Shown here: piece by piece, positions 5,223 through 30,908 of the stretch
How the letters are laid out: each line of letters opens with the position of its first letter
Position numbering within the stretch: the stretch's first letter is position 1
IMG/VR virus record: IMGVR_UViG_2551306162_000001
Location: 30,473-94,472 of that record
DNA: 64,000 bases
Source of the DNA: a virus
Taxonomy: Duplodnaviria; Caudoviricetes
Direction: 5' to 3' (one strand)
Made by a program: the position numbers and the translations under genes
Notes under the pieces: model-generated
Told to the model about the DNA's origin: nothing
What the model saw: only the letters and a program-made list of their open reading frames with translations
The model's database searches: none

Positions 5223-5468
5223 TCAGGAGAGTCCGATCGGGTCGCCGAGCACTGCGCCGTCCGTGTGCCGAAGCGGCCAGAATGTCTGTGGGTTGCCGTG
5301 CTCGTCCATGAACAGGATCCACTTGGTCCCGTCGCCGCGGATGCCTTCGATCCAGCCGGTGTGGGCCTGGAACTGCTCGCGGGACACCTCGTTGCCGGCG
5401 GCGTCGCAGTGGATGCGGGTGGCGATGGCCTCGGCGGGCTTGTAGCGGCCGATGGTGATGTTATGCAT
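5223..5468 (-). CDS. hypothetical protein within tRNA array
   Basis: RBS GGAG, MHNITIGRYK... Confidence 0.6.
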   Translation of the reverse strand: MHNITIGRYKPAEAIATRIHCDAAGNEVSREQFQAHTGWIEGIRGDGTKWILFMDEHGNPQTFWPLRHTDGAVLGDPIGLS

Positions 5469-5517
5469 GGATGCTCCGGTGTGTTGTGCTGGAACATCCA
5501 TCCAGCGAGGGTGTGGG

Positions 5518-5742
5518 TCAGACGCGCGGCGGCCAGTTCCAGTGGCCCGGCGTGGGGGTTTCCGCGAACGGGACGCGTTCCTTGTGGCTGGTGCCGTTGC
5601 GGTAGATGACGAACAGGTCCACGGTGTCGTCGCCGTAGACGTGGGTGACCTTCGCCGCGACCGGCTCGGGCAGGTGTTCGCCGCCGGGCGTGCCGAACGT
5701 CTGATAGTGGACGTCGCGGCTGATGGACGGTTTCTGGCTCAT
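5518..5742 (-). CDS. hypothetical protein within tRNA array
   Basis: KPSISRDVHY...WNWPPRV, a familiar phage small-protein pattern. Confidence 0.7.
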   Translation of the reverse strand: MSQKPSISRDVHYQTFGTPGGEHLPEPVAAKVTHVYGDDTVDLFVIYRNGTSHKERVPFAETPTPGHWNWPPRV

Positions 5743-10072: not shown

Positions 10073-11015
10073 GGTCAGGCACCCCCAGCCGCATCAGCGG
10101 GACGCCAAGTCGGTACCAGAGGCGGCACACGGAAAGTCTGTCGTCGAATGCGCCCAGCACGTGAAAGCGATTCCGGATGTGCTCGTCAAACAAGCCGCTT
10201 TTCACCAGGTAGTCCGGCCGTTTGTCGCCCGCGGCGCGCATGTGCAGCTCGGTGAACATGACGCCGTGGTTGAGCAGCCAGTCGGCGGTCTCGGTCATGC
10301 AGTCGGAGTCGCGGCCGGACAGCACGATGATCGCGGAGTCGGCGGCCAGCTTCTGCACGACCTCGATGGTGTGCGCGATCGGCAGGTCGTCCTTGACCCG
10401 GCTGTAGTCGTAGATGTCGCGGTCCGGGTGCTTCTGCGCGAGCGTCCCGTCGACATCCACGATCCACGCAGGCGGCAGCGACGGGTCGGGCTCGTAGGGC
10501 ACCGGGTAGAAGTACAGGTCCGGGGACGGTTCGACCGGCGCCCACATCTTGCGCGGGAAGCGTTTGGCCAGCGCGCGGATCGCGTCCTCCCCCACCGTCC
10601 GGCCGCCATCCGCGCCGCGGGCGGCGTCACGGCGGACACATTCGTCTACGGGGGTTTCGAGGTCGATCACCTCGACGTCCGCGCCGTGCAGGGCGGCGAA
10701 GTTGGCCCAGCCGCGTGTCCACTGGGCGCGCAGGTTCATGGCGTCGACGAACACGTCGTAGCCGCCGTCGAGCAGGGCCGCTGCTTGGGCGCGTTCGGCT
10801 TTCGAGATGATCTCTTCCTGCGCGTGCGTGAGTCGGCCCTCCGCGGCGAACAGGGTGGCGCGCAGGTCGTCCCGCGACACCCGAGCCAGGTTGGGGTTGT
10901 CCGCGTGCATCCGCCGGAACAGGCTCGACTTCCCCGCCCCCGGCCAGCCGCGGGGAATGATCACCCGCGGGCTGGCCGGGACCGGGATCACGTCGACCAG
11001 ATCGGTGGCGGTCAT
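10059..11015 (-). CDS. polynucleotide kinase / 3'-phosphatase (T4 PseT-like)
   Basis: P-loop GWPGAGKS, SRDDLR, C-terminal HAD VDVDGTLA...SGR...FDDR. Confidence 0.9.
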   Translation of the reverse strand: MTATDLVDVIPVPASPRVIIPRGWPGAGKSSLFRRMHADNPNLARVSRDDLRATLFAAEGRLTHAQEEIISKAERAQAAALLDGGYDVFVDAMNLRAQWTRGWANFAALHGADVEVIDLETPVDECVRRDAARGADGGRTVGEDAIRALAKRFPRKMWAPVEPSPDLYFYPVPYEPDPSLPPAWIVDVDGTLAQKHPDRDIYDYSRVKDDLPIAHTIEVVQKLAADSAIIVLSGRDSDCMTETADWLLNHGVMFTELHMRAAGDKRPDYLVKSGLFDEHIRNRFHVLGAFDDRLSVCRLWYRLGVPLMRLGVPDHDDF

Positions 11016-11587
11016 GCTGCGACCCCACCTTCGGCCTCCAGGTCGACGGTGTTCTCGTCGTCGAGGGCTTTCGTCTCGTGCTGGAGGAAGATCGGCGACT
11101 TGGCCTTCAGTGTGGTCGGGTGCAGGGTGTCGACGGTGCGGATGCACACGCCTTCGTCGACGAGCTTCTTCGACCCCGACAGCGGGACCGCCTGGCCGTA
11201 GCCCTCGTCGTAGTAGCGGCGGTCGATCCAGTCGGCGGGGTCGAAATCCTTGTGCGCCAACTCCGTCAACACCGGCACCGTCTTCAGGCCGAGGTTCGCG
11301 CACCACTCGACGAGCTGGCCCCACGCGAGGTCGGTGATCAGGCCCTGCGGGTTGACGTGCGCGACACGGTACACGTACAGGTCAGCCTCGCCCTGGGGGA
11401 CGTTGTAGGTGTAGCCGGACTGGATCGGTTCGCCCTCGGGCGTCCAGCCGATGAGTTCGCCATAAACGACGAACCCCTCGGGAATCAGACCGTCGAGGCG
11501 ACGCCCGTAGTGCGTCCAGACGTCGCCGTTGAAATCGGCTGCCGTATCAGTCTTTCCAGTTGCCCGCGCCAGCAGCTTCTTCAGCAT
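11012..11587 (-). CDS. RNA ligase, C-terminal half of split gene
   Basis: Motifs III (VVYGELIG), IV (DEGVCI), V (LKAK); own RBS GGAGG-N7-ATG. Confidence 0.85.
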   Translation of the reverse strand: MLKKLLARATGKTDTAADFNGDVWTHYGRRLDGLIPEGFVVYGELIGWTPEGEPIQSGYTYNVPQGEADLYVYRVAHVNPQGLITDLAWGQLVEWCANLGLKTVPVLTELAHKDFDPADWIDRRYYDEGYGQAVPLSGSKKLVDEGVCIRTVDTLHPTTLKAKSPIFLQHETKALDDENTVDLEAEGGVAA

Positions 11588-12029
11588 GCTTCTTCCTCCG
11601 GTGATAGTCCTGCGAGTAGGTGTTTTCCGCGTCCTTGCACGGTTGGCAGCGGCAGGAGTAGAGGCCGTACATCGCGCGGGTGCCGTGCTGGACCCGCCCC
11701 TTTTCCTGTCGCCGTGGAGGTCGGGTCTCGTTGTGGGCCAACATCTCGCCGATACGGTTCGACCTTCGTGTACCCATGTACGGGAGAATCGCTGTCACGA
11801 CGTTGAGCACCTCGCGACGGTTTCCGATTCGCCACGTGTATGCCTGCTTGCGCCCCTCACGGAGTGCCTCTGCGCGGACCGAGCCGTAGCCGACAACGTC
11901 GCAGAGGCGCTGGATGACATCTCGATCAGTCATCGTGCAGTTGACAGCAAGCCCACCGTTGCCCTTGATGAGGAAGCAGCCTTCCCCTTCAAGCAGTCCA
12001 GCGACCCAAGCGGTTTCTTCCGGGGTCAA
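11547..12029 (-). CDS. single-motif LAGLIDADG homing endonuclease with C-terminal Zn motif
   Basis: AWVAGLLEGEGCF; HGT..Y..CRC..C; TTG start overlapping ligase-N stop (TTGA). Confidence 0.88.
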   Translation of the reverse strand: MTPEETAWVAGLLEGEGCFLIKGNGGLAVNCTMTDRDVIQRLCDVVGYGSVRAEALREGRKQAYTWRIGNRREVLNVVTAILPYMGTRRSNRIGEMLAHNETRPPRRQEKGRVQHGTRAMYGLYSCRCQPCKDAENTYSQDYHRRKKHAEEAAGAGNWKD

Positions 12030-12808
12030 CGGTCCACCTTCGAACCATAGAAGTGGTTCTGCTCCGCCTTCGGGTCCTTGATGACCCTTCGGCTGCCGTA
12101 CACGGTGTCGTAGATGTACTCGGCGACCGGCACCTTCAGCCAATGGGCGGCGAGCTTGTCACGCCAGGTCGGCTTCCGCTTCGCGATGGTGTTGCCGATC
12201 CGGATGCTCGTGCCGTGCAGCTTCTGGGTGATCACCACCCGCGCCTCCGGGTCGATCAGGTGTTCGTTGCCCCAGTAGCGGGTGGTGTCGTAGTGCTCGG
12301 GCAGGAACTTCGCGTCGACCCGCACGAACTTCTTGGTCGCCTTGGCCTGCGCCGACACCCGGCCGCTGCCCTTCACGGGCCGCTCGTACTTGCGGCAGAT
12401 CTCGTGGTCGTCGAGGGCGTCGAAGGTGTCGCCTGGTCGCAGCTTCGTCACGTCGTACCCGGTGTAGGCCAGCGACTCGAGCGGCATGAACAGGGCGTCG
12501 CTGCGGTGGCCGCGGAGCTTGATCGCTCGGACGCGGCGGTTGCGCTCCAGGTAGCCCTTCTCGGCCTGGTCAGCGTTCAGGCTGGGCTCGCGGTGCAGGT
12601 TGTTGGCCCGCGCGTACTCCTCCGACAGCTGCGTCTCGGCCGTGAACACGACGCCGAGATCACCGGCGGCGCGGGTCTTGTCGACGATCGCCTGGTAGCC
12701 CAGCAGCGGCGCGCCGGCGATGTTGTCGCAGCCGGCCAGCTCGTTCACCGCGGGCAGCTGGACGACCACGGCCGCGTAGTTCGCGTTCTTGGGTGTGGTG
12801 AGTGCCAT
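12026..12808 (-). CDS. RNA ligase (DRB0094-like), N-terminal half of split gene
   Basis: OB-fold N-term (RVRAIKLRGHRS), motif I TQKLHGTS, GSRR. Confidence 0.85.
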   Translation of the reverse strand: MALTTPKNANYAAVVVQLPAVNELAGCDNIAGAPLLGYQAIVDKTRAAGDLGVVFTAETQLSEEYARANNLHREPSLNADQAEKGYLERNRRVRAIKLRGHRSDALFMPLESLAYTGYDVTKLRPGDTFDALDDHEICRKYERPVKGSGRVSAQAKATKKFVRVDAKFLPEHYDTTRYWGNEHLIDPEARVVITQKLHGTSIRIGNTIAKRKPTWRDKLAAHWLKVPVAEYIYDTVYGSRRVIKDPKAEQNHFYGSKVDR

Positions 12809-12815
12809 GCCCGAA

Positions 12816-12866
12816 ACAGTACGTTACGGTCCAATGCATTGCAATGCCGTTTACTGTATTGGATTA
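12816..12866 (-). promoter_or_regulatory. leaderless promoter in pentamer array
   Basis: TTGCAA-N17-TACTGT-N7-ATG. Confidence 0.7.
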
Positions 12867-13613
12867 TCGCAGGTTGAGCAGCATAACGTTGTCCGCTATC
12901 GACCTGTCGTCCATGTCCAGGATGTGCACCTCGGTCCGGTAGTCGCGGCCGATGAGCGGCGCGTCGAGGCGGCAGTGGTAGTGGCCCGCGAACAGGTGCT
13001 GCGGCCGGACTTCGTCGACGACGCGGGCGAGGAGTTCCCGGTGTCGTTGCGCGGCCGCGAGCTCCGCGTCCGGGAACCCGATCGGGTTGCCCTCGATGCT
13101 CGGGATGCGGACGCCGTCGGGGACGTCGTGGCAGATCATGATGTCGGCGTGCCCGCCGTTGGCCGCGGTGACCGCCTCGCCGATGGTGATGGTCTCGCGT
13201 GCCCACCACTCGCGGCTGGGGGTGCGCCAGGGCCGGTCGACGGAGTGCGCGCCGCCGAGCGCCAGGAACGACACCCCTGACCAGGTCCAGCGGTAGGTGC
13301 GGGGCAGGTAGTAGAGGCGGTCGCGTAGCGGGATCGCGGTGACACCGCGCTCGGCTTCGCGCGGATCGAGGTAGTCGTACGAGTCGTGGTTGCCGCCAAC
13401 GAACCCGAGCGGCAGACGGGTCTCGCGGAGGACGCGTTCGACCCGGCCGAGGAACTTGGGGTGGAAGTCGTAGCCGAAGTCACCGACATGCAGGATCGCT
13501 TCGGCGCCTTGCTCGGCGGCGTAACGGATAGCGCGGGCGGCATGGTACTGGTTGCCGTGCCAATCTCCCGCTACCGCGATCCGCGACGGTTCGACCGTCT
13601 CCCAGCCCGTCAT
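12864..13613 (-). CDS. calcineurin-like metallophosphoesterase
   Basis: GDWHG, HVGDFG, GGNHD, GHYH. Confidence 0.9.
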   Translation of the reverse strand: MTGWETVEPSRIAVAGDWHGNQYHAARAIRYAAEQGAEAILHVGDFGYDFHPKFLGRVERVLRETRLPLGFVGGNHDSYDYLDPREAERGVTAIPLRDRLYYLPRTYRWTWSGVSFLALGGAHSVDRPWRTPSREWWARETITIGEAVTAANGGHADIMICHDVPDGVRIPSIEGNPIGFPDAELAAAQRHRELLARVVDEVRPQHLFAGHYHCRLDAPLIGRDYRTEVHILDMDDRSIADNVMLLNLR

Positions 13614-13912
13614 CGGTCGATCACCTTCATCGTGGCGGGCCCGTACCTGCGGGCCATGCCGGCGAGGTACTCGCGCCCGACCGGGTTGGCGGTGTGGACG
13701 CGGAGCACGGCGGGCCAGTAGTCCTCTTCGCAGAGGTAGCGGATGATCGGGCGGGTGGTGTCCTCGCCGCCGAGGTCGTGATCCAGCGACAACCCTTCGA
13801 ACGGCTCGCCCTTCTCGCGGCACTGGTCGATGCGGCGGACCGCTTCCCGGAAATCGGTGATCAACTCCCAGCCCTCGGGTGCGGGCCGCTCGTCGTCGAC
13901 GAACAGTCTCAT
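13610..13912 (-). CDS. cyclic-phosphate processing receiver-like protein
   Basis: LFVDDER, SLDHDLG, HTANPVG. Confidence 0.8.
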   Translation of the reverse strand: MRLFVDDERPAPEGWELITDFREAVRRIDQCREKGEPFEGLSLDHDLGGEDTTRPIIRYLCEEDYWPAVLRVHTANPVGREYLAGMARRYGPATMKVIDR

Positions 13913-30342: not shown

Positions 30343-30908
30343 CCACCGACCCGCTCGACCAGCCGATCTACACGCGCCGAGACCTGATGCGGATCGGCCA
30401 CGCCCTCCTGCATGTCCCCCACACCGGGGAGATCGAGTTCACTGAGGGCCGCCCGCCCGCCGAGCCGACCCCCGACGTGCTGGTGTCGATGCTCGACCAG
30501 CTCGCCGGGATCCTGCGGGGGAAGATGGCCGCGCCGACCGAGGTCGAGAAGGCCGTGTGGGCGGCGTGGGGCGAGGTCGACGACAACGACCCGGCGCCGG
30601 TGAAACGGATCGCGGCGGCGCTCGGCATGACCCCGGCCGACGTGGCGTTCATCGTCTACCCGGCTGACGAGTTTGGGCCGTGGGACGACAGCCAGGAACC
30701 CGACCTCGAGGACGCTCATTTCGTGCCCGCCGCCGAGCAGGAAGACGACGCGCACGAGGACGACGAGCCGTGGACGTGCGATGTGTGCGACGAGCCCGCC
30801 GAGGTGATCGTGGTCCAGCCGAGCGAGGACGGCGGTCACCCGCATCCGCTGTGTGCCGAGCATGTCGAGCAGCTCGGCCGCGATCTCAAAGCCGACCGCG
30901 GCGACTAG
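30339..30908 (+). CDS. acidic hypothetical protein with HTH-like and Zn motifs
   Basis: VKRIAAALGMT; CDVC...C..H. Confidence 0.5.
   Translation: MTTDPLDQPIYTRRDLMRIGHALLHVPHTGEIEFTEGRPPAEPTPDVLVSMLDQLAGILRGKMAAPTEVEKAVWAAWGEVDDNDPAPVKRIAAALGMTPADVAFIVYPADEFGPWDDSQEPDLEDAHFVPAAEQEDDAHEDDEPWTCDVCDEPAEVIVVQPSEDGGHPHPLCAEHVEQLGRDLKADRGD

Follow-up and report, generated by a model that had tools for sequence, protein, structure and literature searches.

Introduction

The nrdA-a/mobE/nrdA-b arrangement of Aeromonas phage Aeh1 was reportedly described by Friedrich et al. in 2007. When nrdA is divided by mobE, both halves of the enzyme and the tails derived from the insertion are needed for activity (PMC3045599). 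Other phage genes in pieces are known from T4 (gene 39/60, associated with mobA) and from Aeromonas phage 25 (gene 43A/43B); the free-standing endonucleases reviewed for the T4 family are all of the HNH or GIY-YIG type (PMC2988022). In this study, we analyzed a 64,000-nucleotide (nt) stretch of viral DNA (Caudoviricetes; IMG/VR record IMGVR_UViG_2551306162_000001, positions 30,473 to 94,472), hereafter referred to as the window, in which an RNA ligase gene is interrupted by a gene for a LAGLIDADG homing endonuclease. Judged from the insertion, the lack of an intron or intein, and the separate translation signals of each fragment, the locus belongs to the known phenomenon of genes in pieces of the mobE/nrdA type. 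We consider it moderately probable that a mobile, free-standing, I-CreI-like LAGLIDADG cassette split an Rnl5-type ligase, that this cassette spreads by homing, and that the ligase remains active as a two-piece enzyme.

Results

Insertion of the endonuclease gene into the ligase gene

In this Nocardia-like genome, the ligase gene is present as two separately translated open reading frames (ORFs), designated the N-half and the C-half, with the endonuclease ORF between them. A protein search, which covered 5.8 billion proteins, indicated that the closest ones were uninterrupted "RNA ligase family proteins" of Nocardia with 426 amino acids (aa), the best of which (P0002) was 84% identical to the N-half and likewise to the C-half. 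A first-pass annotation, made from the sequence alone, had read the locus as a ligase split within its nucleotidyltransferase domain by an intron-less LAGLIDADG gene, and had named alignment with uninterrupted homologs as a check. This alignment confirmed the reading and placed the break at QNHFYGS^DVWTHYG (carets mark break points), between the Ser and Asp codons. The junctions in the window read FYGS-KVDR-stop on the N side and DFNG-DVWTHYG on the C side, and the F-x-G previously pointed out at both junctions (FYG and FNG) is real.

The insert was exactly 516 bp long against three intact alleles, with the intact relatives being 82–87% identical in nucleotides, and its excision gave back QNHFYGS^DVWTHYG. 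Of the two lengths estimated in the first-pass annotation, that of the endonuclease ORF (483 nt including the stop codon) stood, whereas approximately 520 bp for the insert had to be replaced by the above value. The ligase frame meets three stop codons across the insert, the endonuclease ORF lies in another frame, and the insert extends beyond this ORF by only 11 nt before and 22 nt after it. Together with the negative searches for introns and Hint blocks given in the Discussion, these features bear out the claims that the insert is out of frame, has no intein ends, and leaves no room for a ribozyme.

The cassette terminates the N-half after four foreign codons, so that the C-terminus of the N-half is QNHFYGSKVDR, and its own weak TTG start codon overlaps that stop. 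The purine-rich 3′ end of the cassette contains a Shine-Dalgarno (SD) sequence and an ATG, both within the 3′ end of the endonuclease ORF and in the other frame, which restart the C-half with a cassette-derived leader. Both the coupled TTGA start and the GGAGG-N7-ATG that had been attributed to the cassette were seen in the sequence; the new leader of the C-half was also found, with its length corrected from about 20 aa to 21 aa. The coupling of the C-half to the gene for polynucleotide kinase-phosphatase (Pnkp) through an ATGA overlap was likewise as described. No terminator-like site was found on the coding strand across the operon.

The final 12 nt of the insert (11525-11536, minus strand; GATTTCAACGGC, DFNG) resemble the exon immediately upstream of it (12041-12052, minus strand; CACTTCTATGGT, HFYG), a resemblance that might have been left by duplication of a target half-site. 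A C-half leader ending in FNG also occurs in P0146 and P0201, and does not occur in L006, L009, L122, P0144, P0148, and P0157.

Ligase family and division of the active-site motifs

Both halves were assigned to phrog_968 ("RNA ligase") in PHROGs. The N-half gave a sub-threshold match to the PHA02142 OB fold (PF21189; 21.5 bits against a cut-off of 27), and the C-half matched RNA_ligase (PF09414) with 41.4 bits. The invariant residues of the N-half are K196 of KLHG (motif I) and S239/R240 of YGSRR (motif Ia). Those of the C-half are, in the numbering of the intact protein and with the numbering of the window in parentheses, E279 (E44; motif III), Y308/R309 (Y73/R74; motif IIIa), D379-E380-G381 (D144-E145-G146; motif IV), and K396/K398 (K161/K163; motif V). 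Motifs I, III, IIIa, IV, and V are thus all present in invariant columns, divided over two ORFs. The earlier descriptions of the N-half, by its OB fold, motif I lysine, GSRR, and QNHFYG-SKVDR end, and of the C-half, as resuming at GDVWTHYG with motifs III–V, were both upheld, with the OB fold as a match below the threshold.

An AlphaFold2 model of the intact homolog had a mean predicted local distance difference test (pLDDT) score of 85. The best match of this model in the fold search was the RNA ligase of Naegleria gruberi (5COT, 6VT*; E ~1e-15, approximately 415 alignment columns), followed by T4 Rnl2 and TbREL1. A sequence search of the Protein Data Bank (PDB) with Omega gp162 gave no match, and a profile search gave only a weak match to T4 Rnl2. 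The family placement was taken from the fold search instead. According to the model, the ligase is of the Rnl5 type (NgrRnl/DraRnl-like), with an architecture of an N-terminal OB-like domain and a nucleotidyltransferase domain. NgrRnl and DraRnl (PDB 5COT, 6VT*) have the two domains in the same order, whereas the phage ligase shares 16–18% sequence identity with them at a TM-score of 0.39–0.48 and is approximately 90 aa longer. The split site falls in a low-confidence stretch of the model (residue blocks 241–260), just ahead of a helix (258–266). No second ligase copy of the same family was found in the genome.

Recurrence of the split in other genomes

Splits of this ligase family by the same endonuclease family were found in at least nine other DNA loci and fall at three sites near one another; beyond these loci, at least 35 ORFs of C-half size begin in the same zone. 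The site of the window, FYGx^D[IVL]W (site B), is also used in L006, whose endonuclease is 52–53% identical to that of the window, and in L009 and L122 (63–66% identical). Approximately 12 codons upstream of it lies site B′, VIK[DS]^..NxQNHYY, which was found in L129. Site A is located approximately 30 codons upstream, between motif I and YGSR, and was found in Mycobacterium phage BaboJay, in a Mycobacterium colombiense prophage (L042, identical to L010), in a Rhodococcus metagenome-assembled genome (L043), and in L127/L128. Two further contigs, for which gene tables were used, have the same tripartite layout. GC content varied between 45% and 60% among the split loci, so that the element occurs in more than a single phage group.

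A database clustered at 90% contained 66 ligase ORFs of C-half length, whose starts cluster at reference positions ~220–226, 235–247, and 256–257. Among the best 150 representatives at 50% identity, 27 were 261 aa or shorter, some of which would be contig-edge fragments. One split lineage, P0143, is present on 24 contigs of up to 143 kb.

The first-pass annotation had implied that a split of this kind would be unique for an RNA ligase. This part did not hold, because dozens of split ligases are present in databases and BaboJay (GenBank MK016491) is already annotated with the three genes, as gp89 "RNA ligase", gp90 "HNH endonuclease", and gp91 "RNA ligase". BaboJay resembles the window in having the same ligase and endonuclease families (gp90 is 37–41% identical to the window endonuclease, depending on the method), an ATGA overlap of stop and start codons, and an ATG for the C-half that is embedded closely behind the basic tail of the endonuclease; it differs in the insertion site and in the endonuclease being mislabeled as HNH. 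In the literature, we found no paper on the split ligase of BaboJay or on an RNA ligase split by a LAGLIDADG gene.

Three larger proteins of the same ligase family (P0207, P0271, and P0334; 780–837 aa) contain canonical inteins (Hint and LAGLIDADG_2), and the intein of P0207 lies directly after motif I, at KxHG^S. Taking the inteins and the three split sites together, the nucleotidyltransferase region is a hot spot with at least four insertion sites of homing elements. Another arrangement was observed in L007 (1618-2653; P0031), in which a 259-aa ligase N-half ending in FYTTDIWTD-DR-stop is followed by a 74-nt gap, an unrelated non-LAGLIDADG ORF, and the end of the short contig; this may represent a different element at a nearby site.

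Conservation of the two halves

All 14 half-ORFs translated from the DNA of seven split loci were free of internal stop codons and frameshifts. Besides the window, eight other split loci have an SD-like purine tract and a start codon ahead of the C-half (in this tally, the start of L043 was misplaced). In the window, L006, and BaboJay, the basic tail of the endonuclease (RRKK or RKRK) is closely followed by the embedded C-half ATG, despite 40–70% divergence of the endonucleases. The halves of L127 and L129 are in different frames, and their C-halves are therefore expressible by independent initiation only.

Conservation was compared in the columns conserved in at least 97% of the intact proteins. 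The 41 split C-halves deviated in 10 of 656 cells, and all of them kept E279, D379, E380, R385, K396, and K398; the ten N-halves deviated in 8 of 320 cells, with K196 present in all. Between the window and an intact Nocardia allele, the ratio of nonsynonymous to synonymous substitution rates (dN/dS) was 0.21 for the N-half, 0.09 for the C-half, and 0.17 for Pnkp. Because the open frames, start signals, and catalytic residues are conserved, we infer that the halves form a heterodimer, and their reassembly into an active ligase is plausible.

A related protein, P0168 (293 aa; eight member sequences on four contigs), consists of the first ~47 aa of a LAGLIDADG enzyme, a degenerate stretch, and an in-frame, intact site-A C-half. 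Its sequence suggests that the endonuclease has decayed while the ligase gene has stayed split.

Properties of the endonuclease

The endonuclease has the motif VAGLLEGEG, in which E14, G15, E16, and G17 hardly vary among 24 relatives. Its Pfam matches to LAGLIDADG_3 and LAGLIDADG_1 (15.8 bits each) were under the respective cut-offs of 22.5 and 23.1; a relative, P0123, carries PF00961. The AlphaFold2 model, with a pLDDT of 93.5, showed an α-β-β-α-β-β-α core, and the best Foldseek match was I-CreI (E 4e-6, TM 0.54, root-mean-square deviation 3.0, 115 columns). I-CreI (PDB 1T9I/1BP7) is a single-motif homodimeric enzyme that has the same core as the window enzyme; in both, the motif helix ends with an acidic residue. 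Whereas I-CreI is encoded in a group I intron, the window enzyme is free-standing and has an extra C-terminal helical module, GTR..Y..CRC..C. This module matches a PHROG family of "HNH endonucleases", and LittleE gp14 shares the same kind of C-terminal module with HNH proteins (PMC3706429). The occurrence of the module in actinophage HNH proteins suggests that it is a portable DNA-binding unit. In some relatives of the endonuclease (L129:2056-2535 and P0128), a C-terminal GT..Y..GCRC..C module is duplicated.

A pseudo-palindrome scan of the putative target gave best scores of 7/11 for site B and 8/11 for site A, which were not significant against a background best-of-29 mean of 6.1. Endonuclease relatives with 41–52% identity were also found in intergenic positions that split no gene (L123:1035-1580, L124:220-693, and L008:3001-3447). 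Those of L123 and L124 are located in the same kind of RNA-repair neighborhood, and that of L008 is located elsewhere. Two of the three are directly upstream of a calcineurin-like phosphoesterase gene such as that neighboring the ligase in the window.

Mobility of the cassette

Among 157 matching phage records, nearly all of which are at least 95% identical, BaboJay alone has the insert. BaboJay and AmericanBeauty are approximately 99% identical except for the 504-bp insert and divergent tracts of ~60 nt upstream and ~25 nt downstream of it. These tracts look like the result of co-conversion in homing from a diverged donor, and the insertion looks recent. Furthermore, the identities of the endonucleases are incongruent with those of the ligases (69% for the endonucleases of BaboJay and L043 and 49% for their ligase N-halves), and the split forms are scattered over the ligase tree in a polyphyletic manner. 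No clear co-conversion tract was observed between the window and its closest intact relatives; a slight dip (0.73–0.83) over the first 90 nt downstream was not convincing. On these sequence comparisons, there is evidence of mobility for the element family, and not directly for the copy in the window.

Gene organization around the ligase

The features of the region are listed in Table 1. Since a NUMOD4/HNH_3 gene overlaps the Pnkp gene, the RNA-repair operon holds two different selfish nuclease genes. In the intact Nocardia relative L005, a TROVE (Ro60-like) gene (1323-2942) is located upstream of the phosphoesterase-ligase-Pnkp block, and an extra 100-aa ORF (5278-5580), which is missing from the window, lies between the ligase and Pnkp genes.

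Table 1 Features of the split ligase region. Coordinates are positions in the window; all genes of the region are on the minus strand.
Feature	Position	Strand	Evidence or remarks
RNA ligase N-half ORF, 260 aa	12026..12808	-	OB-like domain, K196 (KLHG), YGSRR, 4-aa foreign tail KVDR, stop
Insert, 516 bp	11525..12040	-	DNA and protein alignment with intact L005, G174, and G109
LAGLIDADG homing endonuclease gene, 160 aa, TTG start	11547..12029	-	PHROGs/Pfam matches; model pLDDT 93.5; best Foldseek match I-CreI
TTGA overlap of N-half TGA stop and endonuclease TTG start	12026..12029	-	AAGGTGG 4 nt upstream
GGAGG Shine-Dalgarno sequence for C-half, 7 nt before ATG	11595..11599	-	Inside the basic RRKK tail of the endonuclease
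RNA ligase C-half ORF, 191 aa	11012..11587	-	21-aa cassette-derived leader, then motifs III, IIIa, IV, and V
C-half leader, 21 aa, preceding DVWTHYG	11525..11587	-	Cassette-derived
Pnkp (polynucleotide kinase-phosphatase), 318 aa	10059..11015	-	Pfam AAA_33 and HAD_PNKP
ATGA overlap of C-half stop and Pnkp ATG	11012..11015	-	Sequence
Calcineurin-like phosphoesterase gene, directly upstream of ligase	12864..13619	-	Same neighbor in intact relative L005
Second free-standing homing endonuclease gene, NUMOD4 and HNH_3, 194 aa	9488-10072	-	Start overlaps Pnkp end by 14 nt

Discussion

The explanation that we favor is that a ligase gene of a phage or prophage received a cassette of the I-CreI-like homodimeric type at the conserved sequence NHFYGx^D[IVL]WT, between motifs Ia and III. 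Its endonuclease would cut intact ligase alleles in co-infection or in phage-prophage encounters, and the cassette would then be copied in by recombinational repair, that is, by homing without an intron. The two polypeptides would fold together as a single nucleotidyltransferase domain and share a composite active site, to which the N-half would contribute K196 and motif Ia and the C-half motifs III–V, and RNA repair with the downstream Pnkp would thereby be retained. A more far-reaching proposal, which we put forward only tentatively, is that this LAGLIDADG lineage is a specialized gene-splitting cassette, the basic tail of which, read in another frame, also provides a ribosome-binding site, a start codon, and a basic-hydrophobic leader that travel with it. 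This could have let it colonize several sites of the ligase nucleotidyltransferase domain and leave a working two-piece enzyme. By analogy with the insertion-derived tails of Aeh1 NrdA-a and NrdA-b, the C-half leader might act as an assembly tag.

Several observations weigh against a functional two-piece ligase. In the model of the intact homolog, the β-strands of the nucleotidyltransferase domain are supplied by both halves, and reassembly would thus need co-folding; moreover, the tail of the N-half is only 4 aa long, unlike the essential tails of Aeh1 NrdA-a and NrdA-b. The insert was absent from all 266 other genomes of the same genus that were searched, the C-half of the window has a short terminal branch in the ligase tree, and its insertion may be recent. 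If so, the open frames and low dN/dS may reflect the history before the split. Because the endonuclease spreads horizontally and the splits are polyphyletic, conservation across the split loci is no proof of long persistence after the split. In addition, the ligase is probably dispensable in culture, since BaboJay was isolated on M. smegmatis. An alternative that takes up these points, and which we consider possible but clearly less probable than the two-piece enzyme, is that the insertion inactivated the ligase. The ORFs would then be undecayed halves of a recent pseudogene, tolerated because the ligase is dispensable, and the translation signals would serve the endonuclease and read-on translation into Pnkp. 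This would agree with the window allele being the sole split one in the genus sample, with the BaboJay insertion, which appears clearly recent, with polyphyletic split forms that are each possibly young, and with a split that cuts an interwoven domain. Against it stand the half-ORFs, which are undamaged in all 14 cases, and the retention of catalytic residues in the C-halves and N-halves compared above. The SD sequence and start of the C-half are kept even where the two halves are in different frames, and despite endonuclease divergence of 40–70%. The occurrence of the split lineage P0143 on 24 contigs, the intact C-half of P0168 that persists behind a decayed endonuclease, and the presence in the same gene family of inteins, which keep function, also speak against inactivation.

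The remaining explanations would yield a full-length ligase. The insert might be a self-splicing, atypical small group I intron with a ribozyme overlapping the endonuclease ORF, so that the complete enzyme is translated from spliced mRNA. Exact removal of the insert indeed restores the conserved protein, and with the variable codon changed to Cys, a U...G pair at the boundaries can be drawn manually. Small, atypical, and efficiently spliced introns occur in actinophages (Cluster J mycobacteriophages), and the capsid intron of LittleE holds a LAGLIDADG gene with a similar C-terminal module (PMC3706429); the LittleE endonuclease, however, is encoded on the opposite strand inside a larger intron. 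We regard an intron as very unlikely in view of the 11 nt and 22 nt that lie outside the ORF and the results of the intron searches. Even at permissive thresholds, no Rfam intron family matched in the window region (E ≤ 10) or in seven related loci (E ≤ 1), and the RNA folding of the insert was no stronger than that of shuffled sequences (z = -0.94). The non-ORF ends of the insert differ between loci, and every locus examined shows stop/start coupling and an SD sequence and start for the C-half, which an intron would not need. Still less credible are post-translational joining of the halves by a degenerate or split intein and ribosomal read-through or bypass of the insert. In their favor, the insert length is a multiple of 3 in the window and six other loci, true inteins are present at motif I in this ligase family, and inteins with out-of-frame endonucleases have been reported in actinophages (bioRxiv 10.1101/2025.01.02.630785). 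An intein or split intein was nevertheless ruled out by the three in-frame stop codons across the insert, by the lack of any match to Hint blocks in the locus proteins, and by the 4-aa tail and 21-aa leader, which are too short; the leader ends in FNG followed by Asp, rather than in HN followed by Cys, Ser, or Thr. Because the halves of L127 and L129 are mutually out of frame, read-through or bypass is excluded as a general mechanism, and the 516-nt insert is ten times as long as the bypass gap of T4 gene 60. In seven loci, the insert length was divisible by 3 and the endonuclease lay in frame -1, but this apparent rule failed in L127 and L129.

With this locus, gene fission driven by endonucleases is extended to a new class of enzymes, the ATP-dependent RNA ligases in the covalent nucleotidyltransferase superfamily, and, in phages of actinobacteria, to LAGLIDADG enzymes that are free-standing. 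Between motifs I and III, nature has split the ligase at three points at which the fold may tolerate fragmentation, and knowledge of these points would help in designing split enzymes. Because BaboJay and the unsplit Cluster E phages that are 99% identical to it grow on the laboratory strain M. smegmatis mc2 155, they offer a ready system in which homing, co-conversion, and the cost of the split could be measured. Annotators can easily mistake such halves for two ligases and the endonuclease for an "HNH endonuclease", as happened with BaboJay.

Among the known systems, T4 gene 39/60 and gene 43A/43B of phage 25 resemble the window in that phage enzyme genes associated with free-standing endonuclease genes are divided into separately translated polypeptides, which in these two cases reassemble. 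They concern replication enzymes of T4-like phages and HNH or GIY-YIG endonucleases, and involve no LAGLIDADG enzyme and no RNA ligase. The closer parallel, named in the first-pass annotation and judged right here, is nrdA-a/mobE/nrdA-b of Aeh1 (Crona et al. 2011, PMC3045599; PMC2988022). In both loci, a free-standing endonuclease gene interrupts a conserved enzyme gene, the active site is divided over two ORFs that are joined by neither RNA nor protein splicing, the start of the endonuclease overlaps the stop codon before it, and the insertion has given rise to new terminal sequences. The activity of the split enzyme is proven for Aeh1, whereas that of the window enzyme is plausible. The Aeh1 endonuclease is of the HNH type and its target is a ribonucleotide reductase gene critical for nucleotide metabolism, whereas the window has a LAGLIDADG enzyme and an RNA ligase that is probably accessory. 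Unlike Aeh1, the window belongs to the phages of actinobacteria, its N-half gains a tail of just 4 aa, and the SD sequence and ATG for the restart are embedded in the 3′ end of the endonuclease coding sequence. Finally, in contrast to Aeh1, the cassette family of the window occurs at three adjacent sites in many lineages.

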